The notes beneath the pieces are model-generated. The model worked only from the letters and a program-made list of their open reading frames with translations, ran no database searches and had not been told where the DNA came from. Positions 1,658-21,394 of a stretch of DNA of 64,000 bases are shown in pieces. The position numbers were made by a program, and so were the translations under genes. Source of the DNA: an uncultured Verrucomicrobiota bacterium (GTDB lineage: Bacteria; Verrucomicrobiota; Kiritimatiellia; JAAZAB01); NCBI GenBank assembly GCA_964444425.1, contig CAYUHK010000004.1, forward strand, positions 12,837-76,836, written 5' to 3'. Position 1 is the stretch's first letter; every line of letters starts with the position of its first letter.

Positions 1658-1658
1658 A

Positions 1659-3724: not shown

Positions 3725-4297
3725 ATGACGCTCAGCGCATCGGATCTGCGCAAGGGTTTGCGCCTGGAAATCGACGGCGCCCCTTACATCATCACCGAGT
3801 TCAATTTTCTTAAACCGGGCAAAGGCGCATCCATTTATAACTGTAAGCTTAAAAACCTGATCACCGGCGGCAGCTTGACCAAGAGTTATCGCTCTAACGA
3901 TGTCTTTGATGAACCTAATCTGGACGAGCGCAGCATGCGCTATTCCTATATCGATGGCGATCAATATGTGTTCATGGATAAAAATTATGAACAGATCCAT
4001 GTTGACGCCAGCGTTTTGGGCGATCAACGCTTTTTTCTAGTGGAAGATATCGAGGTGCGCGTGCTGATTCATAACGGTCGGCCGATTGGCGTGGAGCTGC
4101 CTACCTTCGTGGAGAAGACCATCGTGGAGACAGAGCCGGGCTTCCGTGGCAATACGGCTACCAACGTTCTCAAGCCAGCCAAAATCGAAGGCGGCTATGA
4201 AATTCAGGTGCCCCTGTTCATCAACCAGGGCGATATCGTCAAGATCGATACGCGTAGCGGCGGCTATAGCGACCGCGTCCGCATCGCCCGGAATTAA
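3725..4297 (+). CDS. efp: elongation factor P
   Basis: 190-aa product MTLSASDLRKGLRLEIDGAPYIITEFNFLKPGKGASIY... with the conserved KPGKG loop. GGGAGG RBS lies 9 nt upstream of ATG 3725. The six-frame ORF starts earlier at 3617, but that N-terminus is not EF-P-like. Confidence 0.9.
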   Translation: MTLSASDLRKGLRLEIDGAPYIITEFNFLKPGKGASIYNCKLKNLITGGSLTKSYRSNDVFDEPNLDERSMRYSYIDGDQYVFMDKNYEQIHVDASVLGDQRFFLVEDIEVRVLIHNGRPIGVELPTFVEKTIVETEPGFRGNTATNVLKPAKIEGGYEIQVPLFINQGDIVKIDTRSGGYSDRVRIARN

Positions 4298-4334
4298 AAT
4301 GGCCAGCTCTAGCGCCGGCCGGCGGAAAGAGCCT

Positions 4335-5246
4335 ATGCAAGCTTCTTTAGCTTCCCACAAATCGGTTCTGGAACTGCGCGCCGCCACCCTGCGGGCCATT
4401 CGCCAGTTCTTTTGCGAACGCGCTTTTTTGGAAGTGGATACCCCGCTGCGCGTGCCAGCGCCGGCCTTGGAGTTGTATATCGACGCCATTCCCGCCGGCG
4501 GCGAATACCTGCGCACCTCGCCTGAGCTGCAAATGAAACGTTTGTTGGCAGCCGGCTACCCGCGTTTATTTCAAATCGGACCTTGTTTTCGCCAGGATGA
4601 GCGTGGCGATCGCCACCATCCTGAATTCAGCATGCTGGAATGGTACCGCGCCCAGGCCGATTATATGACGGTATTGGCCGATGCCAAAGCCCTGATCGCG
4701 GCTGTGGCTCAAGCCGTCTTAGGCCGCAGCTGCCTGAATTGGCCCGGCCGCCCCCCGCTTGAATTGCTGCCGGTTTGGGATGTGTTGACGGTGAGCCAGG
4801 CTTTTAAGAACTTTGCCGGCTGGGATCCAGTGGCCGCTTTCGACCCTGAACGCTTTGATCTGGATTTGGTAAATAAAGTGGAGCCAAACCTGTCTCTTGA
4901 GCGGCCGGTGGTACTGATGGATTATCCAGCCGCGGCCGCCGCCCTGGCGCGCCGCCGCCCCAGTGATCCGCGGCTGGCCGAGCGCTGGGAACTTTATATC
5001 GGCGGGCTGGAGCTGGCCAATGCCTGCAGCGAACTAACCGATCCCAAGGAACAGCGCGCCCGCTTCGCCGCCGCCGCCGCCGCGCGGGCTGCCCGCGGCG
5101 CGCCGGTTTATCCATCGGATGAGAAATTTCTGGCGGCCCTGGATGCCGGCCTGCCGCCATCGGCCGGAGTGGCCTTGGGGATCGACCGCCTAATCATGTT
5201 ATTGACCGGCGCGACTTCCTTGGATGCAGTTCTGCCTTTTCGGTGA
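4335..5246 (+). CDS. epmA: EF-P lysine-34 beta-lysyltransferase (class II Lys-tRNA synthetase-like, EpmA/GenX/PoxA)
   Basis: Class II aaRS catalytic core motifs (RAIRQFFCERAFLEVDTP, FRQDERGDRHHPEFSMLEWY, GIDRLIMLL) with no anticodon-binding domain, located directly after efp. An alternative start at 4299 overlaps the efp stop. Confidence 0.8.
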   Translation: MQASLASHKSVLELRAATLRAIRQFFCERAFLEVDTPLRVPAPALELYIDAIPAGGEYLRTSPELQMKRLLAAGYPRLFQIGPCFRQDERGDRHHPEFSMLEWYRAQADYMTVLADAKALIAAVAQAVLGRSCLNWPGRPPLELLPVWDVLTVSQAFKNFAGWDPVAAFDPERFDLDLVNKVEPNLSLERPVVLMDYPAAAAALARRRPSDPRLAERWELYIGGLELANACSELTDPKEQRARFAAAAAARAARGAPVYPSDEKFLAALDAGLPPSAGVALGIDRLIMLLTGATSLDAVLPFR

Positions 5247-6221: not shown

Positions 6222-7577
6222 TCAAATGATGATGGCGCCGCCGGCCTGCAATAGGCGCCTGGTTTCGGCTGGGTTGACGCTGGCCACGCCGTGTTGACCC
6301 TTCCAGGCCTGCCAGGCCGCCACCCCGGCCGCTTCGCCGCATTGGTTCAGGTTGACCATGACGCGGACGGCGCCGAAGGCATCTCGATCCGCGTCCAGCA
6401 TGCGGCCAGCAACCAGGACATTGAAAGCCTTTTTGGGTATCAGGCAGCTCAGCGGTATCTGGTAAAATGGCAGCACCTCGCCCTCCGGCAGCCAGCGCTC
6501 GGCAGAAAGGAGTTGGCCGGCCCGATAAACGCGCGCTGTGCCATTCAAGGCTTTAAGGGAAATGGTTGCATCGGTGTCGTTATGAATGTCCACTGGGTAG
6601 GTGCCGTTGGCGATGGCATCGGGAAAGCGGCGTCCAGCCAGCAACTCTTCGCCGCGGAGCGTTCCTACGGAATAAATATGCAGACCTTCGCGAATGCCGA
6701 TTGCCGCTGGCAGAGTCTCTAGGCAGATCTGGCGCTGGGGAAATTCCATCCGGAGCATTGCCAGAATGGCTTTGATCTGGCGGCGGGCGGTAAGTTCCGC
6801 CCGGGTGATTTCATCGGCGTCGTTGCAGTCGCATTGCAAGACTCGCGTTCCAGCCAGCATATGGAGCTGGCTATTGGGAATTGACATATCCCAGTAATAG
6901 CCGCAGGGCAGGTCTGGCAGCTTTTCTCGATATTTATCCATGCATGCTTGCAGATTAAATCCGTCTGGGAAGGACCAGCCACTAAACCGGGCGCAGCTGG
7001 TTGGCGGCTGAGGATGCTCGGGGCGCCGCATGGCTAGGCCGGCGCTGCGCGTCAGCACGCCATCACCGGAAGCGTCGATAAATACTTTGGCACGAATGGC
7101 GTAACGGCCCGATTTATCCTCAGCGACAATCGCCTGCACCTGGCCGGGAGCGGCCATGACTGCCTGCGAAAAGGAGGTCTGTAGGTACAAAGTAATGTTT
7201 TTCTCGGCCATCACCATGGCATCGAGTTCCAGGGTGAGCTCCTCGGAATTCAAGCGGATACCATAATAGTCGGTCGGTTGACGGAAGGTGCTGCAGGCCG
7301 CGGTCTTCTCCAGGCGCTCAAGAGTTTCGAAGGTGAGCCCGCCGATGATCTGGCGGCTGCGCGTGATATCAAACAGCGAATGCCACATGCCGACCAGGCC
7401 CAAGGTGGCGACGCCGCCCAGCCGGTTCGACTTTTCCAGCAGCACAACCTTCGCGCCCAAGCGCGCCGCCCGCAATGCCGCAAACACGCCAGTGCAGCTG
7501 CCGCCGACCACGCAAATGTCGGCTTCAGTTTTGACAGCTAGCGTCTCGGGCGGCAGTAAAATTTTATTTTTATTCAT
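6222..7577 (-). CDS. FAD-dependent oxidoreductase (FAD_oxidored family)
   Basis: 451 aa with N-terminal dinucleotide-binding motif VVGGSCTGVFAALRAARLGAKVVLLEK. Lies 30 nt downstream of the btuD-like gene on the same strand. Confidence 0.7.
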   Translation of the reverse strand: MNKNKILLPPETLAVKTEADICVVGGSCTGVFAALRAARLGAKVVLLEKSNRLGGVATLGLVGMWHSLFDITRSRQIIGGLTFETLERLEKTAACSTFRQPTDYYGIRLNSEELTLELDAMVMAEKNITLYLQTSFSQAVMAAPGQVQAIVAEDKSGRYAIRAKVFIDASGDGVLTRSAGLAMRRPEHPQPPTSCARFSGWSFPDGFNLQACMDKYREKLPDLPCGYYWDMSIPNSQLHMLAGTRVLQCDCNDADEITRAELTARRQIKAILAMLRMEFPQRQICLETLPAAIGIREGLHIYSVGTLRGEELLAGRRFPDAIANGTYPVDIHNDTDATISLKALNGTARVYRAGQLLSAERWLPEGEVLPFYQIPLSCLIPKKAFNVLVAGRMLDADRDAFGAVRVMVNLNQCGEAAGVAAWQAWKGQHGVASVNPAETRRLLQAGGAIII

Positions 7578-7607: not shown

Positions 7608-8912
7608 TCATCCTAACCCAGGTTGACTGGGGCGGCCCTGGGGCATGAGCGCGGCGGCCAAGCTGGCCAGGGCCTCATGGACTTGGCTCCAAGGTCGCGC
7701 GCCATTTTGAAGCATTATTTTAATGCGCGCGGAAGCGGCCTGGTCGGCGGTATAATCGCGGCCAGCCAGGTCGCGATCGTTGATCAGCACGATTTTACCG
7801 CTCCGCAGGGCGCTGGCGGCTATGTCCAGATTGACCAAGTTACCAGGTCCGAAGGGCACCTGGCAGACTATCACGGCAGCGGCAGCGGCGGCCAGCCGCT
7901 GAGCCTCTGCTAAGGCGGCCGGCGCGATTGGTGAAAATGGTTTTTCGAGGGCTTGCTCTGCGCCTAGCGCGGCGGCAGTTTGGGCGTCGGAATCCAACTG
8001 GTTAAGCACGCCGCAGGAGAGGCGGTAGCCGCTCAGCGAAAGTCGCCGCAAGAGCTCAGCGCCGCTGCCGCCGCCAGCAATCAAATGCACGCGCGCGTTG
8101 GTGTCACCGGCTGATTGGGGCAAGCGCCGCGAGGGCGCCACGAAGAGGCCGCCGGTTTGGTTATCCTGTTGCACGTGCAGGTCGCAGCGATAAACCTCTC
8201 GCAGGATGTCTTTCTGCAGCACCGCCGCCGGCGGGCCATCGGCGGCCACGCGGCCTTGATCTAGCAGGACCAAGCGTTGGCAGAACTCGGCGGCCAGGTT
8301 TAAATCGTGGCTGGTCATAAGCACGGTTACGCCTTGTTCGCGGTTGAGGCGTTCAACTATTTGCATGATTTCCAGCGAATGGTTTAGGTCGAGATGGGTG
8401 GTAGGTTCGTCCATCACGATCAGGCGGGGTTGCTGGGCCAGGGCCATGGCTATGATGGCGCGTTGCTTTTCGCCGCCGCTCAGGGCATCGAGGGGACGGT
8501 CGCCTAGCTCGTGCACATCTGTTTGGGCCATGGCGCGTTGGGCCACCTGGCGGTCGGCGGCGGAGGGTTGTTGCCAGGGTTTAAGCAGAGCTGCGCGGCC
8601 CATCAAGACCAGCTCGGCAACGCTATAGGCCATGGGAGTCTTGAGTTCCTGGGGCACTACCGCCACCAGCCGGGCGCGCTCGGCGGCGCGCAGCTTATTT
8701 AGATTTTGACCGAACAAGCGCACCGTGCCGCTGCTTGGCGGCAGCAGGCCGGTAAGCACGCGCAGCAAAGTGGATTTGCCGGCGCCATTAGGACCTAGCA
8801 GGGCGACGCTTTCGCCGGCAGCCACACTCAGGTTAAGGTTTTGAAATATCAGAGCCGTGCCATAGCCGGCGCTTAATTGTTGGAGTTCGCAAGCCGGTTT
8901 CATTCCAGCCAC
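7608..8912 (-). CDS. ABC transporter ATP-binding protein (BtuD/FecE-like) with ~170-aa C-terminal extension of unknown function
   Basis: Walker A GPNGAGKST, ABC signature LSGGEKQR, Walker B LIVMDEPT and H-loop in the first ~260 aa. The C-terminal ~170 aa (HLIAGGGSGAELL...VIVCQVPFGPGNLVNL...) match no motif I recognise. Confidence 0.8.
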   Translation of the reverse strand: MAGMKPACELQQLSAGYGTALIFQNLNLSVAAGESVALLGPNGAGKSTLLRVLTGLLPPSSGTVRLFGQNLNKLRAAERARLVAVVPQELKTPMAYSVAELVLMGRAALLKPWQQPSAADRQVAQRAMAQTDVHELGDRPLDALSGGEKQRAIIAMALAQQPRLIVMDEPTTHLDLNHSLEIMQIVERLNREQGVTVLMTSHDLNLAAEFCQRLVLLDQGRVAADGPPAAVLQKDILREVYRCDLHVQQDNQTGGLFVAPSRRLPQSAGDTNARVHLIAGGGSGAELLRRLSLSGYRLSCGVLNQLDSDAQTAAALGAEQALEKPFSPIAPAALAEAQRLAAAAAAVIVCQVPFGPGNLVNLDIAASALRSGKIVLINDRDLAGRDYTADQAASARIKIMLQNGARPWSQVHEALASLAAALMPQGRPSQPGLG

Positions 8913-9916
8913 CCATGTTTGCGGCGTTGGCGCAAGAGCATCAAAAAAAATGGTCCGCCGATCAAGGCGGTGATGACGCCTACCGGTATTTCCCGTGGCG
9001 CCAAGGCCGTTCTAGCTAAGGTATCGCAAAGGACCAGGAACCAGCCGCCGGCCAGGGCCGCGGCCGGCACCAGGCGGCGATGGTCTGGGCCAACCAGGCT
9101 GCGCATGTAATGGGGTACGATCAAGCCGACAAAGCCGATTAAGCCGGCCAGGCTTACCGCCGCGGCCGTGGTCAGGGTGGCCAGACCCAATCCCAAGCCA
9201 ACGGCCAACTCGGTGCGGATGCCGAGATGGTAGGCCATTTCACGGCCGAGAGTTAAGGCGTTGAGGTCGCGTGCCAGGCCCCAGATGCCCAGCATGCCGA
9301 TGGCTATCAGTAGGCTACTGATCAATAGCAACCTGGATGACATTACCTGCAGATTGCCCAGCAGCCACCAGGTTATGCTGTGCAGGCCTTCGATCGGGGC
9401 TAAGGAGATGATCAACATCAAGATGCTTGAGCACATCGCGCTGATGATAACGCCGCTAAGCAGCAGCCCGTAAATGGATGGAGCGCCGCCGTGGTGTGCC
9501 AAGAGCACCACCAGGCTAAGGGTTAAGATGGCGGCGCCGAAGGCGCTCAACGGCAGCACTCCAGTGATGGCGGCCAGACCCGATACGATCGCCAGGGCGG
9601 CGCCGAGTCCGGCGCCGCTGCTCACTCCCAGGATATAGGGGTCGGCTAAGGGGTTGCGCAATAGGGCCTGAAGAACCACTCCGGAACTGGCCAGGCCAGC
9701 GCCAACCACAAAGCCGGCGATCACGCGGTGGAGGCGCAGGGCAAGGATGGCGCGGCCTATGGCGTTGTGCCAATCCAGCTGGCTAAATCCGCCGGCGCCG
9801 AGCAAGAGGCTGGCGCCCAGGATGAGAGGCGTCAGCGTCAACAACAGCCAAACCAGCGCCGGCCGCCGCCAGCTCGCTGGGGGCATATTTTTTTTACAGC
9901 TCATGGCTAATTCCAA
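8900..9916 (-). CDS. FecCD-family ABC permease (BtuC-like)
   Basis: 338-aa polytopic membrane protein with typical FecCD/BtuC sequence (LLRNPLADPYILGVSSGA). Overlaps upstream and downstream genes, consistent with operon coupling. Confidence 0.85.
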   Translation of the reverse strand: MELAMSCKKNMPPASWRRPALVWLLLTLTPLILGASLLLGAGGFSQLDWHNAIGRAILALRLHRVIAGFVVGAGLASSGVVLQALLRNPLADPYILGVSSGAGLGAALAIVSGLAAITGVLPLSAFGAAILTLSLVVLLAHHGGAPSIYGLLLSGVIISAMCSSILMLIISLAPIEGLHSITWWLLGNLQVMSSRLLLISSLLIAIGMLGIWGLARDLNALTLGREMAYHLGIRTELAVGLGLGLATLTTAAAVSLAGLIGFVGLIVPHYMRSLVGPDHRRLVPAAALAGGWFLVLCDTLARTALAPREIPVGVITALIGGPFFLMLLRQRRKHGWLE

Positions 9917-9927
9917 TTAGTTTGCTT

Positions 9928-10950
9928 TCAGTTTAGCGCAGCGGGTTTGTAAAAGCAGCATTTTTTAGTGTCGCGCCGTGCCGCGCCGGCGCCTAAGGGG
10001 CCGGGCTTGAAGGGGCTTTGGCCACTTGGGCGGATATCATCCTCTATGCATTGGCGCAGGGCGGCAATGCCTTCTAGCACCCTGGGACCCGGGCGCAAAA
10101 TGGCGTTATTATCCAAGCCGCCATAAACGCGCTGATTTTTTACCGCTTGGCTGGCGGCCCAGCCTATTTGTTTGGAGAGGCCCCAGGCCGACTCCTGGTT
10201 CTCGCGCTCAACCTGAGCCATATCAAGGCAAATGATGATATCCGGATTTTGTTTAAGCACCCATTCGGGTGCAACGGTGAAATAATCGCGCGCGGTTATG
10301 CTGTTGCCAATATTGCAGCCGCCAGCTAAATCAATCAGGTCGGCCACAAAGGAACCTTGGCCCACCGTGGTAAGGGGATCGTTCCAAATCCTTACGAAAA
10401 CCGTGGGCGCTGTTTGGCCGGCCAGCTGGCGTTCCGTCCTTGCGCTGCGGAGCTCGGCCAGGCCCCTTTGAATTGTTTCCGCCAAGGCTTGAGCCTTGGT
10501 TGGCGTATGGGTGAGGTCGCCAACCTGGCGAATGGCTCGGGGTATATCGTCTAACTTGGCACAGGCGATCTGCTGGTGGCGCAGGCCGATTTGTGCGAAC
10601 ATGTCTCTCAGGGCTTTATCCTCCAAATCAACTTCCAGGACCAGGGTCGGCTGCAGCCGCAGCAGGGCATCTAGGGTCGGCGCGCCAAAGCCGCCGACGA
10701 TCGGGATGGCCTTTACTTGATCGGGTGGGTAATCGCAAGCGCTGGTGCGACCGACCAATTGGGTTCCGGCGCCGATGGCATAGATGATTTCCGTCAAGCT
10801 AGGCGCCAGCGAGATCACCCTTGGGGCTGATTGATCACTTGAGGGCGCCCGCGCCGGTTGACAACTGGTCAATAGGATTAGGCCTATCAAGAGCAGAGCG
10901 TTGGCAACAGCTCGGGCTACTCCGGCGCTTAGGCTAGAAGCTAAATGCAT
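9928..10950 (-). CDS. periplasmic binding protein (BtuF-like, cobalamin/iron-complex family), lipoprotein
   Basis: 340 aa with signal peptide and lipobox LLTSC. PBP class III fold motifs (VISLAPSLTEIIYAIGAG..LVG). Sits between the FecCD permease and cobS. Confidence 0.8.
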   Translation of the reverse strand: MHLASSLSAGVARAVANALLLIGLILLTSCQPARAPSSDQSAPRVISLAPSLTEIIYAIGAGTQLVGRTSACDYPPDQVKAIPIVGGFGAPTLDALLRLQPTLVLEVDLEDKALRDMFAQIGLRHQQIACAKLDDIPRAIRQVGDLTHTPTKAQALAETIQRGLAELRSARTERQLAGQTAPTVFVRIWNDPLTTVGQGSFVADLIDLAGGCNIGNSITARDYFTVAPEWVLKQNPDIIICLDMAQVERENQESAWGLSKQIGWAASQAVKNQRVYGGLDNNAILRPGPRVLEGIAALRQCIEDDIRPSGQSPFKPGPLGAGAARRDTKKCCFYKPAALN

Positions 10951-11788
10951 GAATCACCTTTGCATAGGGGGCCAGGGCTGCCAGAGTGAATAGCAGGATG
11001 CACTCGCTGGTTTCGTTGGCCAGGCCCAATAGATCTCCCGTTACCCCTCCGAAAGAGCGTCGCATCCAACTAGCCAAGGGCCAGCCCAACAGGCCAGCCA
11101 GAAGAAGGATTAAGCCGCCCGCCCAACCTAGCAGCAACAGGCTAAGCAGCAACGCCAGGCCGGCGGCACCAAGCAAGTGTTTGGGCCGAGCCTGTTTAAC
11201 GAAAGCGCCGGCGCCGCCGCCTTCGGCGCGAGCATAGGGCAAGGTTACCGCCAGTAGCACCATGATCAGGCGCGAGAGTATAAAGGGTATGGGCATCCAG
11301 GTCCATTGGCCCAGTTGGACCAATTGGGCTAGGGCGATTGTTTTAAGCAGTAAGGCCGCGGCTATGGCTGTAGCGCCAAAGGCCCCCAGATGGTGATCCT
11401 TCATTATGGCCAGCATGCGCTCACGCGGGCGCCCGGGGGCATAGGCATCGGCGCTATCGCCCAGGCCATCGAGATGCAATCCGCCGGTGATCCAGGCCAG
11501 CAGAATCACGCCAGCGGCGGCCGCGCCGTTGGGCCAGCCGAGCCAAGCACCGATCAGCCAGGTTAGCCCGGTCAATAATCCGCCGATCAGGGCACCGACC
11601 AGGGGGAAAAATATCAAGGCGTCGGTTAGGCGGGTTGAGTCTTGGCCTGGCAGCCTGAGAATGGTTAAGGTTTTACATGCCGTTATTAATCCGTTCAGCA
11701 GCATAGCTAAACTCCCGCTCAGTTGAGCCAATTCGCCCTCCAGCTTATATTGAAGCAGGGCCTGCTTGCAAACCAGAAAGTCGGCCAA
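10934..11788 (-). CDS. cobS: adenosylcobinamide-GDP ribazoletransferase (cobalamin synthase)
   Basis: Polytopic membrane protein with CobS signatures (GGLHLDGLGDSADA, GGVTGDLLGL). The true start may be the internal Met at about 11704 (MLLNGLITA...), based on comparison with E. coli CobS length. Confidence 0.8.
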   Translation of the reverse strand: MADFLVCKQALLQYKLEGELAQLSGSLAMLLNGLITACKTLTILRLPGQDSTRLTDALIFFPLVGALIGGLLTGLTWLIGAWLGWPNGAAAAGVILLAWITGGLHLDGLGDSADAYAPGRPRERMLAIMKDHHLGAFGATAIAAALLLKTIALAQLVQLGQWTWMPIPFILSRLIMVLLAVTLPYARAEGGGAGAFVKQARPKHLLGAAGLALLLSLLLLGWAGGLILLLAGLLGWPLASWMRRSFGGVTGDLLGLANETSECILLFTLAALAPYAKVIHAFSF

Positions 11789-11799
11789 GCCCCAGCGGC

Positions 11800-12864
11800 T
11801 CAGGCGCCCGGGGCGATGCCGGCCTCAGCAAAACTGGCCATGTGATTATAGATTGCTAAGGCATCCTCGATTATTTGTATGGCGATGACTGCGCCGGTGC
11901 CTTCGCCCAGGCGCAGACCTAGGTCCACTAACGGCCGGAGATTCTCTCGCGCAAAAAAGATCCGGTGTCCTGGTTCGGCGCTCATGTGGGCGAAGAAAAG
12001 ATAATCCCTTACGGCGGGACAAATCCGCATGGCCGCCAGCGCGCCGGCACTGGCAATGAAGCCATCTACCACCACCGGGCGGGCCTGGGCGGCGCCCCCC
12101 AAGCATAGGCCGCAGATGCCGGCTATTTCTAAGCCACCCAGCGCCGCTAGCGTTCCCAGGGCGTCTTGGCAAAGGGGGCGGTTGCGCGCGATGGCCTGAT
12201 CCACCACTTCTATTTTATGATTGACACCGGAGACGTCGAGGCCGGTGCCCGGGCCAACGGTTTGGCTGGCCGGCAGGTTTAAGAAGGCCGAAAACAAGGC
12301 GGCCGCTGAGGTGGTATTACCGATGCCCATGTCGCCGGTAGCCAGCAGGGCAATGCGTTGCCGGGCTGTCTGCTCGGCCTGTTTAATGCCCACGGCTATG
12401 GCTTTTAAGGCCTGGTCGGGAGTCATGGCAGGCCCTTGCGCGATGTTGTCGGTTCCGCGTTTAACATTGCATCTTTGCAGGCCCTTGACCCGGCCCAGAT
12501 CTTGGGCCATGCCGATATCAATGATTTTAATTTTGACGCCGGCTTGGCGAGCCAAGACATTGATGGCCGCAGCGCCACCCAGAAAAGATTTTACCATCAG
12601 AGCGGTAACGGTGGAGGGATAGGCGCTGATGCCTTCCTGGACTACGCCATGGTCGCCGGCGAACACGAAGACATGCTTGCTTGCCAGGCGCGGGCTTTCT
12701 TGCGGGAGCATGGCTGCGCAGCGCGCGGCGATCTCCTCGAGATATCCCAGACTGCGGCGCGGCTTGGCCAGGGCATCCAGGCGCTGAAAGGCCCGCGCCA
12801 GCGCGGCCGGGGCTATCGGTCGGATGCGGCTGATGGTTTGTTCGAGCAAAGCGGCGGAGCGCAT
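11800..12864 (-). CDS. cobT: nicotinate-nucleotide--dimethylbenzimidazole phosphoribosyltransferase
   Basis: 354 aa with CobT-family motifs (FAGDHGV, GDMGIGNTTSAAA, GGLEIAG). Confidence 0.85.
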   Translation of the reverse strand: MRSAALLEQTISRIRPIAPAALARAFQRLDALAKPRRSLGYLEEIAARCAAMLPQESPRLASKHVFVFAGDHGVVQEGISAYPSTVTALMVKSFLGGAAAINVLARQAGVKIKIIDIGMAQDLGRVKGLQRCNVKRGTDNIAQGPAMTPDQALKAIAVGIKQAEQTARQRIALLATGDMGIGNTTSAAALFSAFLNLPASQTVGPGTGLDVSGVNHKIEVVDQAIARNRPLCQDALGTLAALGGLEIAGICGLCLGGAAQARPVVVDGFIASAGALAAMRICPAVRDYLFFAHMSAEPGHRIFFARENLRPLVDLGLRLGEGTGAVIAIQIIEDALAIYNHMASFAEAGIAPGA

Positions 12865-12908
12865 AGGCGGTTTTCTCTTTATGACATGGCCTCCATGAGC
12901 ATAGCAGC

Positions 12909-13442
12909 TTATTTTGGCAAGGCGCCTTTCAAGGCCAGCGGCAGACCGGCTACTACCAGCACCACATTGGTTGCCAGCGCTGCCAGATCTTGATTGAACC
13001 AGCCAGCCAGGTCGCGGAAGCTGCGGCCCAATTCATGTTCCGGCACAATGCCCATGCCGACTTCATTACTTACCAAAATCAGGTTTTGCCGGCAGGCTCC
13101 CAGGGCCTCCAGCAGGGTCTGGCGCCTTTTAGGATAAGAGTCCAGGCCTTCTTTTAAAATGACGTTGGTTAGCCAGAGGGTTAGGCAATCTACCAGCAGG
13201 CCATCGCCATCGGCGCTAGCCAGGGCCGCTGCCAGTTCCAAAGGTTCCTCGCGACAGCGCCAGTGCGCGCCACGCGCTTGGCGATGGGCCTGAACCCGCC
13301 GGGCCATTTCGGCATCCTTAACCTCGGCAGTGGCCAGGTAAAGGGGCCGCTGCCAATGACGCTCGGCCAAGCGCAAGGCATAGTTGCTTTTCCCGCTGCG
13401 GGCGCCGCCCAGCACCAACACGCGCATTAAGTTAGCAGGCAT
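12909..13442 (-). CDS. cobU: bifunctional adenosylcobinamide kinase / adenosylcobinamide-phosphate guanylyltransferase
   Basis: 177 aa with P-loop GGARSGKS at the N-terminus, typical CobU/CobP size and sequence. Confidence 0.85.
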   Translation of the reverse strand: MPANLMRVLVLGGARSGKSNYALRLAERHWQRPLYLATAEVKDAEMARRVQAHRQARGAHWRCREEPLELAAALASADGDGLLVDCLTLWLTNVILKEGLDSYPKRRQTLLEALGACRQNLILVSNEVGMGIVPEHELGRSFRDLAGWFNQDLAALATNVVLVVAGLPLALKGALPK

Positions 13443-14284
13443 TGTGATAACCTCTTTAGCGACTGCTGCAAAGCCTTGGCATTAAATAGCTCCAGTGTCA
13501 GGACGCCGTTAAAATTGTCAATAGAATTCAAAAACTGCTGCAGCCAGCCAGCCGGCCGGTCGGGCAGGGGTTGATGGTCGCGCCCGGCCTTGACGCCATG
13601 CAAATGAATCACTCGGGTGCGCTCGGCATAGCCTTGGTAATGGCGGCAAAGGGCGCCGCCGGCCAGCTGGAGATGGCCGGTATCCAGGCAGACTCCCAGT
13701 CCAAAAAGTTCTAGAAAAACCTCGCACCAGGCAAAGGGGTAAGCCAAGTTTTCCAGACAGAGTTGCCCGGGCATATCCAGCTGATCGCAGATAGCAGGGA
13801 GCAGCTGGGCGATGCGGCCCTGCCAGTTTTTGACGCTGCTAGCCTTGGCCTCAGGCGCTATGCCCTCTAGATGCAGGATATAGGCATAGGGCCGCAGCGG
13901 CCTAACCCGCTTGATGATTTTGATGATCTGGCCTAGCAGCTCCCTGCGTTCGGCTGGCTGGGCGGAGCCCAATTGACGATCGATCGGCAAGTGAATGGTG
14001 TAGGTCAAGGAATGTTCGGCGGCGAGTTGGCCCAGCAGCGCGATGGTCTTAGGCGTTGGTATAGCCTGGCGGGTTTTCGATTCAAAAAGGATTAACTCGA
14101 TATCATCCAAGCCCGGTGCCAAGGCCCGCACGTTAGTCAATATGTCAGCTGGGTAGACGTAGGAAGGCGCGCCCAATCGAAAATGGTGTTTAGCCGGGAA
14201 GGGCGGCAAGGGCAAAAATTGCCTGGCTGTATTCGAGCGTGGGCCGGGCACGGTTTTTTCAGATTCCAACATCTGGCTGATCAA
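13427..14284 (-). CDS. cbiR: xylose-isomerase-like TIM-barrel protein, candidate cobamide-remodelling phosphodiesterase (CbiR-like)
   Basis: 285-aa AP-endonuclease-2/xylose-isomerase-like barrel (HLEG, LDTGH, IHLHG metal-ligand-like motifs). First gene of the cobU-cobT-cobS-btuFCD operon, overlapping cobU by 16 nt. The cbiR assignment is by family plus context only. Confidence 0.5.
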   Translation of the reverse strand: MISQMLESEKTVPGPRSNTARQFLPLPPFPAKHHFRLGAPSYVYPADILTNVRALAPGLDDIELILFESKTRQAIPTPKTIALLGQLAAEHSLTYTIHLPIDRQLGSAQPAERRELLGQIIKIIKRVRPLRPYAYILHLEGIAPEAKASSVKNWQGRIAQLLPAICDQLDMPGQLCLENLAYPFAWCEVFLELFGLGVCLDTGHLQLAGGALCRHYQGYAERTRVIHLHGVKAGRDHQPLPDRPAGWLQQFLNSIDNFNGVLTLELFNAKALQQSLKRLSQCLLT

Positions 14285-17070: not shown

Positions 17071-18036
17071 ATGCGTATAGTTTTCATGGGCTCGGCTGAG
17101 CTGGCCTGTTGCTCACTGGATAGTTTACTAGCCAGTCCGGCGGACAGGCTGGTGGGGGTGATCGCTCAGCCAGATCGACCCAAAGGGCGCACCCTGCAGC
17201 TGGCGGCATGTCCGGTGCGCGCCCACATCGGTCGGCGCCAGATTCCGGTTTTAACCCCAGTATCCGTCAATACGCCTGAGAGCCAGCAAGCGATAAAGGC
17301 GCTGGCGCCGGACTTGATCGTGGTGGTGGCCTACGGACAAATTTTAAAACCAGCCCTGCTGGATATTCCGCCGCGCGGCTGCGTCAATCTGCATGCATCT
17401 TTGTTGCCGCGCTATCGCGGCGCCGCGCCGATCCAATGGGCCATCGCGCGTGGGGAGCGGCGCACCGGCGTGACCACCATGTTTCTCAATGCGGCCATGG
17501 ATGCCGGCGATATCATTGATCAGATCGAGGAGCCGATCCATGTCGATGATACGGCTGGGACTCTTCATGAGCGCCTGGCCAGTTTAGGCGCTCAACTGCT
17601 GCTTCGCAGCCTGGATGCTATTCGTCAAGGCACTGCCCGCCGCCTAGTCCAGGATCATGCCGCCGCCACCTACGCACCCAAGCTTAAAAAGAGCGATGGC
17701 TATCTGGACTGGCGGCGGCCGGCTATTGAGCTTTATAACCGCATTCGCGGGTTTAACCCATGGCCGGGCTCTTATTTTGAACTGGGCCGGCCAGGTTTGG
17801 GCAGTGGCGCGATCAAGGTACTGCAAGCCAGCGTCGTGCCGGCGCCGGGCGCGGCGCGGGGCCAACCCGGGGAAGTGCTGGCCCTATCGTCGGCTGGGCC
17901 GGTGGTGCAAACCGGGGAGCAAGCTTTATGCCTATTGGAACTACAACCAGCTGGTCGTAAGGCCATGAGCGCAAACGCCTTTCTTTGTGGCCATCCCTTA
18001 AAGGTTGGCACGCGCCTGGCCTTAATGAAAACCTAA
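17071..18036 (+). CDS. fmt: methionyl-tRNA formyltransferase
   Basis: 321 aa starting MRIVFMGS, with formyl-transferase motif NLHASLLPRYRGAAPIQWAI and a C-terminal Fmt domain. Confidence 0.9.
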   Translation: MRIVFMGSAELACCSLDSLLASPADRLVGVIAQPDRPKGRTLQLAACPVRAHIGRRQIPVLTPVSVNTPESQQAIKALAPDLIVVVAYGQILKPALLDIPPRGCVNLHASLLPRYRGAAPIQWAIARGERRTGVTTMFLNAAMDAGDIIDQIEEPIHVDDTAGTLHERLASLGAQLLLRSLDAIRQGTARRLVQDHAAATYAPKLKKSDGYLDWRRPAIELYNRIRGFNPWPGSYFELGRPGLGSGAIKVLQASVVPAPGAARGQPGEVLALSSAGPVVQTGEQALCLLELQPAGRKAMSANAFLCGHPLKVGTRLALMKT

Positions 18037-19703
18037 TCGGTCGGAGCAGTTTCTTGGATGTTGGCTGCCCAAGGCTGGGCCCCCAGTTGTCTCAAGCGCT
18101 CAGCTTCATCGATCACCTGGCCGGTGGTTGGGTCTAGGGCTAGACAAGCCCCATCAATAATGGCAGTTGGCGTGGCGCTGCGGGCGCCGCCGGCGCCAGC
18201 CAGACCGGGGGCGTCGAGCAGACCCCGTTGGACTGCTTCATTAAGAACGGTTGGGTTGCCCCAAGGATCCGGATCGGTCGGCGCAAGTTTTTTGATGGCC
18301 TGCAGGAGCAAGCGTGTTTCGGATACGAGCTTGGTTTGGCGTTGCTGCAGGGCCTGATCGAGAGTGCAATCGGGCAGGCCATCTAAGGCGTTCTGCAAGG
18401 TCCCGCGGGCGATTTCACAGGATTCGATAACTTCATCGGCTGTGGCAGCGTGATCGCCTTCACTAAAGCCTACCACGTGCAGGATATGCGGCCGCATGGC
18501 TAACGAGATTACCGCAGTAGCGGCCATTTGGCCCTTGGCGATATTGCCATGGGGTGAAAGGCTTGCCAATCCAGCGCGCACTTGGTTATAGACGGTGAAA
18601 TGCTCATCTTCCAGGCTATGGATGAGTTCCTGTTTGGCTAGCATCTTGGCTAAATCCATGCGTGGGGTTGTTCCCGGCGGGGTATTGAACATATATTGCG
18701 AAACATAGTGTTTCACACCGCAACGCTTGGCGTTGTAGGCGGCTAGGAAGGCGGTAGCCACTGCTACAGTATCATGAGCGTTGCGCAGGCTCCATTGGTG
18801 CGCTTCATTGACTTCGACTGGCACGGCATGCTGGGCGTACCAGCGAATCGCTTGCAAGTTTTCGCGCAGCGCCGCCAGCAGCGGCCGTTGGGAACGACCA
18901 TCCAATTGGCTATACCAGCTTAAGGGGATAGCGCCCCAGGCAATCTTAATGGTGCGCAGGCTCATCTCCGCCCAGCGCTCCAAATCATTGGTGCCGCTAT
19001 AACAGCGCAAGAGGGGGTGATTACCGCAGCGCGTGGCGTTATAGATGTCTAGCAAGTCGGCAGGTTGACGGAGCGGCACGCCGCCGGCGCCGGCCTGGGC
19101 GGGGTTCATCTTGGCTGGGCGAAAAAAATATTCCTGGGCGTTTTGGTCCGGGCCCAGAGACAAAACATCTAGCGCCGCGGCCGCGGCGATGCGCGCGGCT
19201 CCGCTGACAGTTTCTGTCAGGCTGGGGCGACCATAGTGATGCCGCAGCAGCGGCATGGGGTAGCTTTGGGCGATGCGCGCGCTGAGGCTTTGGGCCGGAA
19301 TAGCGGGGCTGGTGGCGGCCGCGCCGCCGCGTAAAAATTCAGATACTTCATTCAGGCTTTCGGTGCCGGCAAAGCTGCGTTCGAAAATGCCGGAGCGCTC
19401 GGCGACTGCAGCCACCGGCGGCGTTCCGCCAAAGACCAAGCGGGTTGAGCTGTCAGCCGCCTGTGGCAGCAGTTGCTTGAATTCGGCCAAGAGTTGCGCG
19501 GCCGTTTCCGGTGTAAGTCGGTAACTAATGGCGAGCAGAGCCGGTTTTTGTTTAATCAATTGCTCAACCAGTTGTTGGGGAGACAGGCGTGTGCCCAGGA
19601 AGCGCGTGAGGTAGCCCTCGGCCGCGGCCAGGCGCAGAAAGCCTTGAATCCCGGCAACATGGACGCAATCGCCAATAGTGGCGCCTAAAACCAAGCCCTT
19701 CAT
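18033..19703 (-). CDS. cobalamin (B12)-binding-domain protein with large C-terminal domain of unknown function
   Basis: 556 aa. N-terminal ~130 aa resemble a Rossmann-like B12-binding domain with the DxHxxG motif (GDCVHVAGI). The remaining ~420 aa match no enzyme family I can name. Start overlaps the stop of the upstream opine-DH gene (ATGA at 19700-19703). Confidence 0.55.
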   Translation of the reverse strand: MKGLVLGATIGDCVHVAGIQGFLRLAAAEGYLTRFLGTRLSPQQLVEQLIKQKPALLAISYRLTPETAAQLLAEFKQLLPQAADSSTRLVFGGTPPVAAVAERSGIFERSFAGTESLNEVSEFLRGGAAATSPAIPAQSLSARIAQSYPMPLLRHHYGRPSLTETVSGAARIAAAAALDVLSLGPDQNAQEYFFRPAKMNPAQAGAGGVPLRQPADLLDIYNATRCGNHPLLRCYSGTNDLERWAEMSLRTIKIAWGAIPLSWYSQLDGRSQRPLLAALRENLQAIRWYAQHAVPVEVNEAHQWSLRNAHDTVAVATAFLAAYNAKRCGVKHYVSQYMFNTPPGTTPRMDLAKMLAKQELIHSLEDEHFTVYNQVRAGLASLSPHGNIAKGQMAATAVISLAMRPHILHVVGFSEGDHAATADEVIESCEIARGTLQNALDGLPDCTLDQALQQRQTKLVSETRLLLQAIKKLAPTDPDPWGNPTVLNEAVQRGLLDAPGLAGAGGARSATPTAIIDGACLALDPTTGQVIDEAERLRQLGAQPWAANIQETAPTD

Positions 19704-20797
19704 TCAGTGGTCTCCTCGCCGATAGCCAGCAGGCGCAGGCTGCGCACCGACATATCTTTGATGCCCAGGCGTTCAACCGTGCGGCCTTCTTGCCAGAAAT
19801 CTATGCCGCATAAAGCGCTGGCCATTTGGATCACCGCCCGGATGGTTGGCGTGGGGACTTTTAGCATCTCTCCCAAGCTGGCGATAGGCACTAGGCTCAT
19901 GGGCACGTCTTCGGTTAGGTAACGGGTGTGGATGCCGGTGGGGGCCATGATGCCCCGATAGCCAGGATTAGCGTGCATGGCATGCCAGATATCCGGTCCA
20001 TTGGCTTCATAGGCGAAGTGCATCCATTGTCGGGCGGTCATGGCTTGAATGCCAATGGCCTCGGCCACGGCGATCCGCTCGGCATCCACTTCCTCCAGCA
20101 CTTGAGCCACCGAAGGGCTGCAGCCTTGCAAATAAAATTGGAATTCCGAATCATCTTCAATCCAGCCGGCATTAAGGACCGTGATAGTGGGGTGAAATAC
20201 CGCGCCGATGTTATTGAGGCTGGTTTTGAAAACGTTATCTCCGGGAACGAACTGAGGATAGGCTGCCTTCAGCAGGCTCAGTACCTCCGGTATGCGATGG
20301 GCATTGATCGCGGCAACCGGAATAGCGTTTTTAATGCGAAATATACGTACCTGGCCGGGGTTATTTACGCGGGAGGCGTAGATCAATGTTTGGGCCTCAG
20401 CGATGGTTACATCAGCCTTAATGCCTTCAGCAGTTAAGACTTGCCTGAATTCCAGGGCGCCAAAGGTGCGTCCCGGGTTCAAAACCACCACTTGCCCATC
20501 GGCCAGGTGGGGTCCAATAGTTTTAGCCATATCGTGGTGGGCGGTAGCCGGCACCACGACCATCAAGATATTAGCGCCTTGCAGGGTTTCAATGGGATCG
20601 GTGCTGGCTATGGCGATCTTTGCAAAGCCTTCCACCTCGCCTTCCAGAGTGATGCCGCCGGTCATCTTGATAGGGAGCAGACGCTCGGGCGAGCGATTAT
20701 ATAGGCGCACCTCGAAACCCATCAGGGCGAGGTGTCCGGCCATGGCTAGGCCGCCATGGCCGGCGCCGAGCACGGCAAAAACCGGTTTAGCTGTCAT
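19700..20797 (-). CDS. NAD(P)-dependent opine dehydrogenase family protein (octopine/nopaline DH-like)
   Basis: 365 aa with N-terminal GxGxxG (AVLGAGHGGLAMAGHLA) and C-terminal octopine-DH-like helical domain. Confidence 0.75.
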   Translation of the reverse strand: MTAKPVFAVLGAGHGGLAMAGHLALMGFEVRLYNRSPERLLPIKMTGGITLEGEVEGFAKIAIASTDPIETLQGANILMVVVPATAHHDMAKTIGPHLADGQVVVLNPGRTFGALEFRQVLTAEGIKADVTIAEAQTLIYASRVNNPGQVRIFRIKNAIPVAAINAHRIPEVLSLLKAAYPQFVPGDNVFKTSLNNIGAVFHPTITVLNAGWIEDDSEFQFYLQGCSPSVAQVLEEVDAERIAVAEAIGIQAMTARQWMHFAYEANGPDIWHAMHANPGYRGIMAPTGIHTRYLTEDVPMSLVPIASLGEMLKVPTPTIRAVIQMASALCGIDFWQEGRTVERLGIKDMSVRSLRLLAIGEETTE

Positions 20798-21087
20798 AGC
20801 GATAATTCCTTTGAACTATAGCCAACGTTAAAATCATGGTTTGCTGTTGTCAGGGTGGCGGTGCATATGTTGGAGCGATTTTCTAATAAGGGTAAGCCAA
20901 GGTTTTTAAGATGTCCACTTTATTTTTAATAACACTGAGACGGCGAGTAAGCCAGGCGCTGTCGGGGGGTGGTCGGCTTAGCTAGGGCGCTGGAGCAATG
21001 GGCAGCCCAGCTCAAAAAAAAGATTTGCGTTAGGCCGGCGGATCTGCTTAGCTGCTGACCTGACGTAAAACAAGAGGCATTTGGATT

Positions 21088-21288
21088 ATGAAAGCAAAAA
21101 TTCATCCTAAGTATGATGATGCCACCATCAGCTGCATTTGTGGCAATGTTATTCATACGCGCTCCACGGTTAAAGATATCAAAATCAATACCTGCTCGGC
21201 CTGTCATCCTTTTTTCACGGGCACGGCGAAATACGTGGATACGGCTGGACGCGTTGAACAATTCCGCAAACGCTACAGCAAGAAATAG
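21088..21288 (+). CDS. rpmE: 50S ribosomal protein L31 (Zn-binding C+ form)
   Basis: 66 aa MKAKIHPKYDD...CxC...CxxC motif, highly conserved. Confidence 0.9.
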   Translation: MKAKIHPKYDDATISCICGNVIHTRSTVKDIKINTCSACHPFFTGTAKYVDTAGRVEQFRKRYSKK

Positions 21289-21394
21289 CGCCCTACCTTT
21301 CTGTGGGTCAGCCATCTTTGGCCAACGGCCTTTTAGCTTTCCTGTTTGATCGGATAAGGATCTAGCTGGATAGCGGAAGCGCAGGGCTCATGCC

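Follow-up and report, generated by a model that had tools for sequence, protein, structure and literature searches.

Two overlapping genes in the window (the whole 64,000-nucleotide stretch analysed, from an uncultured Verrucomicrobiota bacterium) are, in the reading that we cautiously favour, predicted to encode an adenosylcobalamin-dependent isomerase and an opine dehydrogenase that would together convert a substrate derived from an amino acid, possibly into a compatible solute. By its fold, the 556-aa product is recognisable as a putative coenzyme-B12 isomerase in which GlmS-like and GlmE-like parts are fused. Its 365-aa partner is a true opine-type dehydrogenase and probably depends on NADPH. 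Both genes are intact (Table 1). The first-pass annotation had called the two reading frames correctly, together with the ATGA in which the stop codon of one gene overlaps the start codon of the other. A GAGGAG hexamer is located 8 nt upstream of the B12 gene ATG, within the end of the dehydrogenase gene. The ATGA overlap suggests translational coupling, and at least 10 further loci show the same -3/-4 overlap.

Table 1. Coordinates of the features of the gene pair (positions in the window)
Feature	Position	Strand	Basis
Opine dehydrogenase gene, CENDH type, 365 aa	19700..20797	-	ORF; PF02317; PDB 1bg6
Fused B12-binding domain and GlmE-like TIM barrel gene, 556 aa	18033..19703	-	ORF; homologues; AF2; Foldseek
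ATGA, overlap of dehydrogenase stop codon and B12 gene start codon	19700..19703	-	sequence reading
GAGGAG, Shine-Dalgarno-like hexamer	19712..19717	-	sequence reading
B12-binding Rossmann domain, ~aa 1-125, without helical cap	19329..19703	-	PF02310 covers residues 4-102; profiles; Foldseek
C13-V-H15-V-A-G18, family variant of the His-on DxHxxG motif, Cys for Asp	19650..19667	-	alignments to corrinoid proteins and GlmS
GlmE-like (beta/alpha)8 barrel and C-terminal subdomain, ~aa 140-545	18069..19286	-	predicted secondary structure, Foldseek, hhalign

The pair is surrounded by housekeeping genes, with no transporter or regulator adjoining it. As had been pointed out, genes for taking up and salvaging cobamides (BtuFCD-like, CobS, CobT, CobU and a CbiR-like gene) form an operon close by, at 7608-14284, 3.7 kb from the pair. 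However, its position beside the pair is not conserved: neither the neighbour-gene clusters of the 80 loci nor the flanking-gene tally contains a recurrent cobamide gene family. The presence of the operon indicates only that the organism has a way of obtaining corrinoids.

More than 6600 homologues of the 556-aa protein were found. Its N-terminus had been taken for a B12-binding Rossmann domain, and all 40 family members tested match Pfam PF02310 (best E=1.7e-14), though the window protein as a single sequence scores 27.8 bits, under the cut-off of 32.1, which counts against the favoured reading. The family profile matches the solved corrinoid proteins 4jgi, 1y80 and 7xcn_M with E values of 5e-8 to 3e-6 (4.8e-8 for 4jgi). 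The domain aligns with E. coli GlmS (hhalign, E=4.6e-4), and Foldseek superposes it on 1y80 and 4r3u_C with a TM score of 0.8. The fingerprint consists of CxHxxG, 41 residues, S60..L63, 28 residues and G92-G93; His15, G18, S60, L63 and G92-G93 are invariant in the family and their spacing is canonical. The ligand motif had been read as DxHxxG in GDCVHVAGI, which is out of register: in alignments to corrinoid proteins and GlmS, Cys13 falls on the Asp position and His15 on the ligand His. The form C-[VIA]-H-x-x-G is found in 119 of 120 homologues and D12 is not conserved. The replacement of Asp by Cys is a further point counted against the favoured reading.

The C-terminal part had been described as fitting no known B12-enzyme family and as not glutamate-mutase E-like. 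Neither statement holds, as homology searches align the barrel to GlmE. The best Foldseek match of the AF2 model (pLDDT 89.8) is GlmE 6h9e_B (E=3.6e-15, 435 columns, TM 0.56/0.64), followed by 1cb7_B (E=3.0e-14) and then by OraE, KamD, MCM, IcmF and HCM, all adenosylcobalamin isomerases. Apart from matches to B12-binding domains, all of the 50 matches listed are of this kind. At the sequence level, the superfamily profile aligns with GlmE by hhalign (E=4.6e-5, residues 207-525 against GlmE 122-432). The Pfam profile Met_asp_mut_E gives weak matches in 8 of 40 family members, and its cut-off is exceeded by a fusion relative, P0257. The family and GlmE have the motifs G-T-x-D and GxLDxP...G...TR..dGA in common. 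Identity to glutamate mutase is about 12-14%, and the first third of the barrel gives no sequence alignment to GlmE, a point also counted against the favoured reading. Each predicted barrel strand is followed by invariant polar residues: RHH154-156, D186/Q187, R233-C234-Y235, W263-Y264, E297/N299/H302, Q336, R376 and H406/H409/E415/H418. The CxxxCxxC motif is absent, as had been stated.

Among the known systems, the best structural match is glutamate mutase with its accessory protein (GlmS/GlmE and GlmL; C. cochlearium 1cb7 and 6h9e, E. coli O157 ECs_0762-0764), which also combines a small cap-less His-on B12 domain with a TIM barrel. However, glutamate mutase consists of two subunits whereas the window family is a single polypeptide with the S part ahead of the E part, has Cys in place of the Asp of DxHxxG, and has an opine dehydrogenase rather than methylaspartate ammonia-lyase as its obligatory partner. 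Two glutamate-binding residues of GlmE are not conserved either (R148 corresponds to Tyr235 and E170 to Gly257, E. coli numbering, in a low-confidence alignment), and this too is counted against the favoured reading. OraSE (3kp1) and KamDE (1xrs), the second-best structural matches, likewise join a TIM barrel to a Rossmann B12 domain.

The 365-aa gene had been assigned to the opine dehydrogenases, and this is borne out by a match to PF02317 (E=1.3e-48) and by a full-length match to the Arthrobacter N-(1-D-carboxyethyl)-L-norvaline dehydrogenase 1bg6 (CENDH, from Arthrobacter sp. 1C; E=1.4e-79), with which it is collinear over residues 5-355 of both proteins. Residues 11-16 form a GxGxxG motif. 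The proposed catalytic residues of CENDH, His202, Arg292 and Asp297, are kept as H202, R292 and D297; together with N34-R35 after beta-2 they are at least 97% conserved across 74 operon-partner dehydrogenases. Because of this Asn-Arg pair and the usual rules for Rossmann folds, a preference for NADPH is suggested. CENDH, in contrast, is a stand-alone, NAD+-dependent enzyme from an aerobe, whereas the dehydrogenase gene of the window family is always coupled to the B12 enzyme.

That the two genes form a functional pair, as had been proposed, is supported by their adjacency in 78/78 and 75/75 informative loci (153/153, from many phyla) and, for a distantly related sister family, in 6/6 loci, as well as by gene fusion. 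Members of the sister family are about 1220 aa long, read GDCVHSLG at the ligand motif and are fused to a GlmL/MutL accessory protein (PF13941, E=7e-76; NCBIfam accessory_GlmL, E=2.6e-75). P0476 is a triple fusion of dehydrogenase, B12/barrel protein and GlmL. Since GlmL is the accessory protein of glutamate mutase, its fusion to the sister family argues for an adenosylcobalamin mutase. As a separate observation, also counted against the favoured reading, GlmL, adenosyltransferase and MeaB-type genes are present neither in the window nor alongside the main family. An AsnB-like (asparagine-synthetase-like) gene adjoins the pair in 57/80 and 56/69 loci (about 75%), the Cys-type copy scoring 579.7 vs 499 bits, above the asparagine synthase B equivalog cut-off. 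Other immediate neighbours are mixed (n=134: MarC 10, amino-acid permease 8, AsnC regulators 8, MscS 3).

The system had been presented as possibly undescribed. A novel B12-dependent family was, however, predicted by Zhang, Rodionov, Gelfand and Gladyshev in 2009 (BMC Genomics 10:78; PMC2667541), with an N-terminal B12-binding domain, a pfam02317 dehydrogenase always adjoining, and, in the vicinity, genes for asparagine synthase and for D-Ala-D-Ala-ligase-type (ATP-grasp) enzymes; it was then known from 11 genomes of four phyla. The present operon and an ATP-grasp fusion found among the relatives fit this description, and it is very probable that the two families are the same. The 2009 report gives no C-terminal fold, GlmL or dehydrogenase fusions, CxHxxG observation, or regulatory or physiological clue. 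We found no later characterisation of the family in the literature, and no assignment of function in curated families, solved structures or papers.

What is new here is the association with riboswitches and mechanosensitive channels. Six relatives carry a total of seven nhaA-I riboswitches, on the operon strand and immediately 5' to genes of the operon: L001, L005, L015 (two), L092, L094 and L167. They score 42-48 bits (cut-off 37). A structure-aware scan of 160 loci found no others, so that carriers number 6/160. The nhaA-I class senses Li+, or Na+ in variants (PMC9646797), and the osmolyte genes ablA and eam are regulated by the related Na+-I (DUF1646) class (PMC9337991). In six lineages (L008, L017, L022, L005, L026 and L063) the operon itself includes genes for MscS or MS channels, and a Na+/H+ exchanger with a CBS domain and a trehalose-6-P synthase adjoin it in some loci. 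Known osmolyte systems offer parallels. With ablA and eam (PMC9337991), as in the six carrier loci, a riboswitch of the Li+/Na+ classes precedes amino-acid-modifying enzymes. In the NAGGN pathway (Ngg ATP-grasp and AsnO amidotransferase) an AsnB-family amidotransferase is likewise the finishing step, and an ATP-grasp variant exists there as in the relatives of the window family. However, the core enzymes of those systems are radical-SAM aminomutases or GNAT/ATP-grasp enzymes, entirely unlike the window family. The window copy carries none of the salt-related accessories of the family, lacking an AsnB-like gene as well as a riboswitch, a small TM gene and a channel. Also counted against the favoured reading are this bare copy, the small share of loci with a riboswitch, the mixed neighbours and the sister family discussed below.

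In this organism the pair might instead be catabolic, an imported opine-like or gamma-glutamyl/peptide-like compound being isomerised and then oxidatively cleaved to an amino acid and a 2-oxo acid, with no link to salt stress. The genes missing around the window copy are consistent with this, and the sister family, always beside a dehydrogenase, looks catabolic in its context of Opp-type ABC or TRAP transporters, GntR/RpiR regulators, Peptidase_C26, CN_hydrolase and amidohydrolases. CENDH, the closest characterised dehydrogenase, also comes from an opine-degrading isolate. However, transporters and regulators are neither beside the window pair nor typical of the main family, the dehydrogenases of which have a conserved N34-R35 that would favour NADPH and hence an anabolic role, and the commonest third gene encodes an ATP-consuming amide synthetase. 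We consider a catabolic pair unlikely.

It appears somewhat less likely again that the B12 enzyme is an aminomutase, shifting an amino group rather than the carbon skeleton, like the ornithine 4,5- and lysine 5,6-aminomutases. The amine so formed would be the substrate of the dehydrogenase, just as 2,4-diaminopentanoate dehydrogenase follows OraSE; in the OraSE and KamDE pathways an NAD(P)-dependent dehydrogenase comes after the aminomutase, an established pathway logic. OraE and KamD provide Foldseek matches 3-9 (E=1.6e-9 to 1e-7), OraE and KamE are also among the matches of the N-terminal domain, and the barrel lysines K353 and K357 are invariant. However, GlmE is clearly the better structural match and the sole barrel family detected by sequence. 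The PLP-binding lysine of the aminomutases resides in the Rossmann-domain subunit, while no Lys is invariant within residues 1-130 of the family, and the fused accessory protein scores better as GlmL (254 bits) than as the ornithine-pathway Or-4 (155 bits). Very improbable, finally, is a methylcobalamin-type corrinoid protein with a methyltransferase barrel, or a B12-like domain that has ceased to bind cobamide and has a purely structural or regulatory role. By sequence, the N-terminal domain best matches corrinoid proteins from methyltransferase systems (4jgi, 1y80, MttC), and both the Cys for Asp and the sub-threshold Pfam score could be read in this way. Against it, the protein lacks a helical cap domain and the operon a methyltransferase partner, no methyltransferase barrel is among the 50 Foldseek matches listed, fusion to GlmL is specific to adenosylcobalamin mutases, and the His15, S..L and GG fingerprint is invariant.

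In the favoured reading, a mutase paired with an opine dehydrogenase, the 556-aa protein would be a single-chain relative of glutamate mutase. We infer that its GlmS-like domain binds a cobamide base-off/His-on, with His15 as cobalt ligand, and that its TIM barrel holds the substrate. Adenosylcobalamin would initiate a 1,2-rearrangement by a radical route, in a small amino-acid derivative rich in carboxylates. The dehydrogenase may supply the substrate of the mutase or use up its product by condensing an amine reductively with a 2-oxo acid, a step that would draw onward a rearrangement close to equilibrium. Where an AsnB-like enzyme is encoded beside the pair, in about three quarters of the genomes, it would then amidate an aspartate-like carboxylate. 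The Li+/Na+ riboswitches and mechanosensitive-channel genes of several lineages therefore suggest salt-induced synthesis, and the likeliest physiological role of the family would be to make a small solute in response to salt.

The dehydrogenase and B12 protein genes are two intact minus-strand open reading frames by ORF calling. As the first-pass annotation reported, they overlap by ATGA, where the dehydrogenase stop codon overlaps the start of the 556-aa gene, with a GAGGAG hexamer 8 nt upstream of that start. Both N-termini align with those of homologues, and the start codons of both genes are therefore right. Upstream lies a divergent prfA-prmC pair, and further neighbours are the fumarase subunits and tatD. 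The pair thus forms a self-contained two-gene unit surrounded by housekeeping genes. The overlap between fmt and the B12 gene at 18033-18036 leaves no intergenic room for terminators. A 129-aa ORF of odd-looking composition has no Pfam match and no homologue across the 80 genome loci searched, and is probably spurious. Elsewhere in the window, a gene with a lysyl-phosphatidylglycerol-synthase-type membrane domain (329 aa) precedes a 386-aa class II (Asp/Lys/Asn) tRNA-synthetase core, whose only Pfam match is to the catalytic core (tRNA-synt_2). These two may form an aminoacyl-lipid or EpmA-like system.

Positions of features in the window and in the loci of relatives (L numbers)
Locus	Feature	Position	Strand	Context
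Window	Membrane-domain gene and tRNA-synthetase-core gene	2631-5246	+	
Window	Cobamide uptake and salvage operon	7608-14284	-	adjacent to the region of the gene pair
Window	AP_endonuc_2 TIM-barrel gene	13427-14284		overlaps the cobU start
Window	B12 protein gene (556 aa)	18033-19703	-	
Window	fmt	ends 18036	+	convergent with the 556-aa gene, which ends at 18033; 4-nt overlap
Window	Opine dehydrogenase gene (365 aa)	19700-20797	-	
Window	129-aa ORF	20926-21315	-	upstream of the dehydrogenase gene
L001 (Phycisphaerales)	nhaA-I aptamer	6266-6319	operon strand	ahead of a small TM gene that precedes the dehydrogenase gene
L001 (Phycisphaerales)	~120-aa membrane protein gene	6396-6755		between riboswitch and dehydrogenase gene
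L092 (metagenome)	nhaA-I aptamer	2985-3038	operon strand	as in L001
L092 (metagenome)	~120-aa membrane protein gene	3396-3746		between riboswitch and dehydrogenase gene
L094 (metagenome)	nhaA-I aptamer	3308-3360	operon strand	as in L001
L094 (metagenome)	~120-aa membrane protein gene	3431-3766		between riboswitch and dehydrogenase gene
L005 (Firestonebacteria)	nhaA-I aptamer	163-223	operon strand	directly before the B12 gene
L167 (metagenome)	nhaA-I aptamer	4866-4925	operon strand	directly before the B12 gene
L015 (Desantisbacteria)	nhaA-I aptamers (two)	6760-6813, 11453-11505	operon strand	one before the dehydrogenase gene, one before the AsnB-like gene
L083	Aminomutase-like and ATP-grasp genes	871-4880		5 kb upstream of the operon
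L101	Fluoride riboswitch (42 bits)	6740-6810		directly downstream of the B12 gene

The 365-aa protein belongs to the octopine/nopaline dehydrogenase family, as first proposed. It matches the Pfam profile PF02317 (Octopine_DH, CENDH type) with 165.2 bits (E = 1.3e-48; cut-off 30) and is collinear over residues 5-355 (E = 1.4e-79) with 1bg6, the solved N-(1-D-carboxyethyl)-L-norvaline dehydrogenase (CENDH) from Arthrobacter, in which His202, Arg292 and Asp297 are the proposed catalytic positions. These three residues, the G11-x-G13-x-x-G16 motif and an Asn34-Arg35 pair following strand β2 are each at least 97% conserved among 74 dehydrogenases adjoining B12-protein homologues. Score, full-length collinearity, the GxGxxG fold and the His/Arg/Asp residues all identify an opine dehydrogenase of the CENDH type. 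According to general Rossmann-fold rules, Asn34-Arg35 suggests NADPH rather than NADH as cofactor.

The B12-binding nature of the 556-aa protein, proposed at first pass, holds for the family but falls short for the window sequence by itself, which scores 27.8 bits against PF02310, under the gathering cut-off of 32.1. All of 40 homologues match this profile (best E = 1.7e-14), and the family profile matches the solved corrinoid-binding domains of 4jgi (E = 4.8e-8), 1y80 (E = 2.7e-6) and MttC (E = 3e-6) as well as mutase and aminomutase B12 domains; an hhalign comparison with E. coli GlmS yields E = 4.6e-4. The predicted structure adopts a flavodoxin-like Rossmann fold that superimposes in Foldseek on solved B12 domains with TM(target) 0.81 (1y80) and 0.80 (HcmB, 4r3u_C) and an rmsd of about 2.5 Å. 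His15, Gly18, Ser60, Leu63 and Gly92-Gly93 are invariant in the family alignment, with canonical 41- and 28-residue spacers; the Ser/Leu pair reads S-Y-R-L. However, the initial reading of GDCVHVAGI as DxHxxG is out of register: in alignments to corrinoid proteins and GlmS it is Cys13, not Asp12, that falls on the Asp, and Asp12 varies. The strict DxHxxG...SxL...GG fingerprint is accordingly absent from the window protein, the Asp being replaced by Cys. Of 120 homologues, 119 have this Cys, which makes CxHxxG the signature of the family; distant relatives fused to GlmL (the glutamate-mutase accessory protein) carry GDCVHSLG. Assignment of a predicted B12-binding domain is solid at the family level, and the near-invariant Cys beside the predicted cobalt-ligand His represents an unexplored variation of the His-Asp pair.

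The C-terminal part of the protein, about 420 residues, was originally thought to belong to no known B12-enzyme family. Searching PDB sequences with the 556-aa protein alone gave nothing significant, neither the single sequence nor the family profile gave a PDB match for the C-terminal part, and NCBIfam contains no model for the protein. The predicted structure nevertheless contradicts that view, which is refuted under the criterion set at first pass. The AlphaFold model built from 40 homologues (pLDDT 89.8, pTM 0.75) is confident and shows a (β/α)8 barrel in which invariant polar residues follow every strand and many invariant Arg and His residues form the lining. The model's first-ranking Foldseek match in the PDB is GlmE, the E subunit of glutamate mutase (6h9e_B, E = 3.6e-15 over 435 columns, TM 0.56/0.64; a second structure, 1cb7_B, E = 3.0e-14), with which it shares the TIM barrel and C-terminal subdomain. 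The next matches are ornithine 4,5-aminomutase, lysine 5,6-aminomutase, methylmalonyl-CoA mutase, IcmF and 2-hydroxyisobutyryl-CoA mutase, which are all, like GlmE, adenosylcobalamin isomerases. At the profile level the window protein has no match to PF06368 (Met_asp_mut_E) at E<=1; 8 of 40 homologues match weakly (best E = 3.5e-5), and only the fusion relative P0257 passes the cut-off (27.5 vs 26.6 bits, profile positions 21-383). Compared with a GlmE alignment built from the E. coli O157 gene, the narrow family alignment gives a marginal hhalign score (E = 0.03-0.04), and significance is reached only with a broader superfamily profile of 64 members (E = 4.6e-5, 294 columns). The family and GlmE have two motifs in common, G-T-x-D following strand 3 and GxLDxP...G...R..GA in the C-terminal part.

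Several classes of B12 protein can be weighed against this GlmE-like assignment. A corrinoid protein of a methyltransferase system is not indicated: the B12 domain starts at residue 2-4, neither Pfam nor the family profile reveals a helical cap (B12-binding_2) ahead of it, and no methyltransferase occurs among the conserved neighbours. Nor do the features of a B12-dependent radical SAM enzyme appear, as already noted at first pass, the seven cysteines including no CxxxCxxC and Pfam giving no PF04055 match. The PLP-dependent aminomutases OraSE and KamDE are among the nearest folds but carry a conserved PLP lysine in the B12-domain subunit, whereas no Lys is invariant in residues 1-130 here. Glutamate mutase itself is the closest comparison. 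However, the E. coli O157 operon has separate glmS and glmL genes and a methylaspartate ammonia-lyase, while the S and E parts are fused here, and GlmL, methylaspartate ammonia-lyase and ATP-grasp genes are all absent from the window and the 80 loci searched. The glutamate-binding residues of GlmE are the arginine claw R66/R100/R149 with E171/Y181 (C. cochlearium numbering). A low-confidence hhalign alignment places GlmE R148 (E. coli numbering) on Tyr235 and E170 on Gly257, the region of the first two claw arginines falling outside it. On this alignment neither of the two glutamate-binding residues is retained, and the substrate would therefore probably bind in a different way from free glutamate in GlmE.

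Fusions in relatives tie the GlmE-like protein to adenosylcobalamin-mutase biology. When 1.84 billion representatives were searched exhaustively with the profile, 246 clusters matched at E<=1e-30 and 647 matched at E<=1e-10. They include a sister family of at least 433 members from Anaerolineae and Bacillota, whose proteins are about 1220 aa long and continue beyond the B12 domain and barrel into a GlmL/MutL domain (PF13941, E = 7e-76; NCBIfam accessory_GlmL, E = 2.6e-75). In P0476 (1657 aa) opine dehydrogenase, B12/barrel and GlmL form a triple fusion, which ties the dehydrogenase to the mutase. P0257 (863 aa) has an extra ATP-grasp domain of the glutathione-synthetase/RimK type.

Relatives are encoded on at least 583 contigs when one genome for each of 185,579 species is scanned, and the family spans more than 6600 protein clusters. 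Hosts among the matches listed are Planctomycetota, Bacteroidota, Ignavibacteriota, Aminicenantes, Clostridia, Spirochaetes, several candidate phyla and one Methanomicrobia archaeon. Conserved synteny, the lack of which would have weakened the functional link proposed at first pass, holds throughout the informative loci: the dehydrogenase adjoins the B12 gene in 78 of the best 80 of these loci, the other two being cut by a contig end, and in 75/75 informative cases from 80 independent metagenome loci. It is also the gene immediately upstream in all six sister-family contexts inspected. Those contexts contain Opp/TRAP transporters, GntR/RpiR regulators, Peptidase_C26 and CN_hydrolase, as if the sister family served uptake, de-amidation and degradation of the same kind of compound.

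An asparagine-synthetase-like (AsnB-like) third gene follows in 57 of the best 80 genome loci and 56 of 69 metagenome loci, and is absent from the 64-kb window. In most copies the N-domain is shortened and Ala or Ser replaces the glutaminase Cys. The loss of this Cys led us to consider a role like that of β-lactam synthetase, which we reject as the principal interpretation. About 11 operons retain an enzyme with MCGI, and this Cys type passes the NCBIfam equivalog cut-off for asparagine synthase B (579.7 vs 499 bits). Moreover, both types are much nearer to AsnB (1ct9, E = 2.3e-49) than to β-lactam synthetase or the carbapenam synthetase CarA (about E = 1e-16). Based on the equivalog score and this closeness, amidation of an aspartate-like carboxylate is the most likely AsnB-like step.

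Rfam scans of relatives identified seven nhaA-I aptamers (RF03057, 42.0-48.1 bits; cut-off 37) in six relatives, all on the operon strand and each 5' of an operon gene. The aptamer stems covary. One copy precedes each half of the operon in the Desantisbacteria locus, and the two metagenome loci L092 and L094, which share the Phycisphaerales arrangement, are the closest relatives of the window gene among the matches listed. The conserved membrane protein of about 120 aa encoded behind the riboswitch in L001, L092 and L094, the three closest relatives among those listed, has no Pfam or NCBIfam match and is absent from the window. A structure-aware scan of the 160 loci and the window found no further nhaA-I aptamers; the window has none 5' of its operon and does not belong to the nhaA-I regulon so defined. 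RNAs of this class turn on genes upon Li+ and variants answer Na+ (PMC9646797), while the related Na+-I (DUF1646) class governs ablA and eam, both osmolyte genes (PMC9337991). The accessible parts of the text and supplements of these two papers make no mention of an association with the present operon.

Other neighbours also relate to salt. MscS-type genes occur within the operon in three loci (L008, L017, L022), and in four (L005, L026, L063, L167) the dehydrogenase gene is followed by one for a mechanosensitive-channel TM-helix protein. Adjoining genes encode a Na+/H+ exchanger with a CBS protein (L015, L009), trehalose-6-P synthase (L009) and a ClC channel (L024). A systematic tally of the 134 immediately flanking genes is less striking, with 10 MarC, 8 amino-acid permeases, 8 AsnC-type regulators and 3 MscS. 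The salt link is suggestive; it appears in several independent lineages of relatives and is not universal. The window copy is a minimal two-gene version without salt-related accessories. Two further loci deserve mention. In L083, the closest long contig among those listed (68% identity), a lysine-2,3-aminomutase-like radical SAM gene stands beside two D-Ala-D-Ala-ligase/ATP-grasp genes, one fused to a GNAT acetyltransferase, a set reminiscent of N-acetyl-β-lysine-type osmolyte genes. The fluoride riboswitch of L101 probably has no connection with the operon and presumably acts on the gene that comes after it.

The cobamide operon noted near the pair at first pass is present, but is not a conserved neighbour of it. 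Its order is AP_endonuc_2 TIM-barrel gene, CobU, CobT, CobS, BtuF-like, BtuC-like and, last, an ABC ATPase of 434 aa, in which the C-terminal ~220 aa match nothing in Pfam. By analogy with the cobamide-remodelling enzyme of Akkermansia (PMC7733943), the AP_endonuc_2 gene may encode a CbiR-type enzyme. The operon shows that the organism is able to supply the cofactor. A cobalamin riboswitch was sought in the whole window and the relatives scanned and was not found.

The pair was first put forward as a possibly undescribed system. However, Zhang et al. 2009 (PMC2667541) had noticed a family, very probably this one, that has an N-terminal B12-binding domain and always adjoins a pfam02317 dehydrogenase; in some genomes asparagine synthase and D-Ala-D-Ala ligase genes lie close by. 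They had called for experiments. The gene pair by itself had thus been observed before; full-text searching of the literature found no characterisation of the family after 2009. The finding is real and better defined than originally thought: a predicted GlmSE-like coenzyme-B12 isomerase locked to an opine dehydrogenase, in a family that now has a testable link to cation/salt stress in relatives.

The evidence on mechanism is that a His-on-type B12 domain lacking a cap is fused to a GlmE-like barrel, that the dehydrogenase is an obligatory partner and an AsnB-like enzyme a frequent one, that relatives have GlmL fusions, and that some lineages have the operon under cation-riboswitch control. The B12 protein would carry out an adenosylcobalamin-started radical 1,2-rearrangement of a carboxylate-rich, amino-acid-derived substrate. 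The dehydrogenase would perform an NADPH-driven reductive condensation right before or after it, and such neighbouring steps would explain both translational coupling and fusion; the AsnB-like enzyme would then amidate. In a speculative version, a 2-oxo acid and an amine would give an N-(carboxyalkyl) amino acid, whose glutamate-like part would become methylaspartate-like before amidation. It is conceivable, though we consider it rather unlikely as a whole, that the module performs an undescribed coenzyme-B12 isomerisation of an N-(carboxyalkyl) amino acid (opine) or a glutamate- or aspartate-like precursor, yielding with AsnB-like amidation a new compatible solute that many anaerobic bacteria and some archaea would make upon Na+/Li+ and that the GlmL-fused sister system would degrade.

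Known adenosylcobalamin-dependent isomerase reactions number only about a dozen, to our knowledge. A widespread further one would appreciably extend B12 enzymology and bear on estimates of why microbes require cobamides. The fold assignment, the fusions and the riboswitch provide concrete experimental leads for a family predicted in 2009. If the salt link is true, the operon would point to an undescribed osmolyte in anaerobic sediment, digester and subsurface communities, and would bring a biosynthetic pathway into the small group of genes that alkali-cation riboswitches control.
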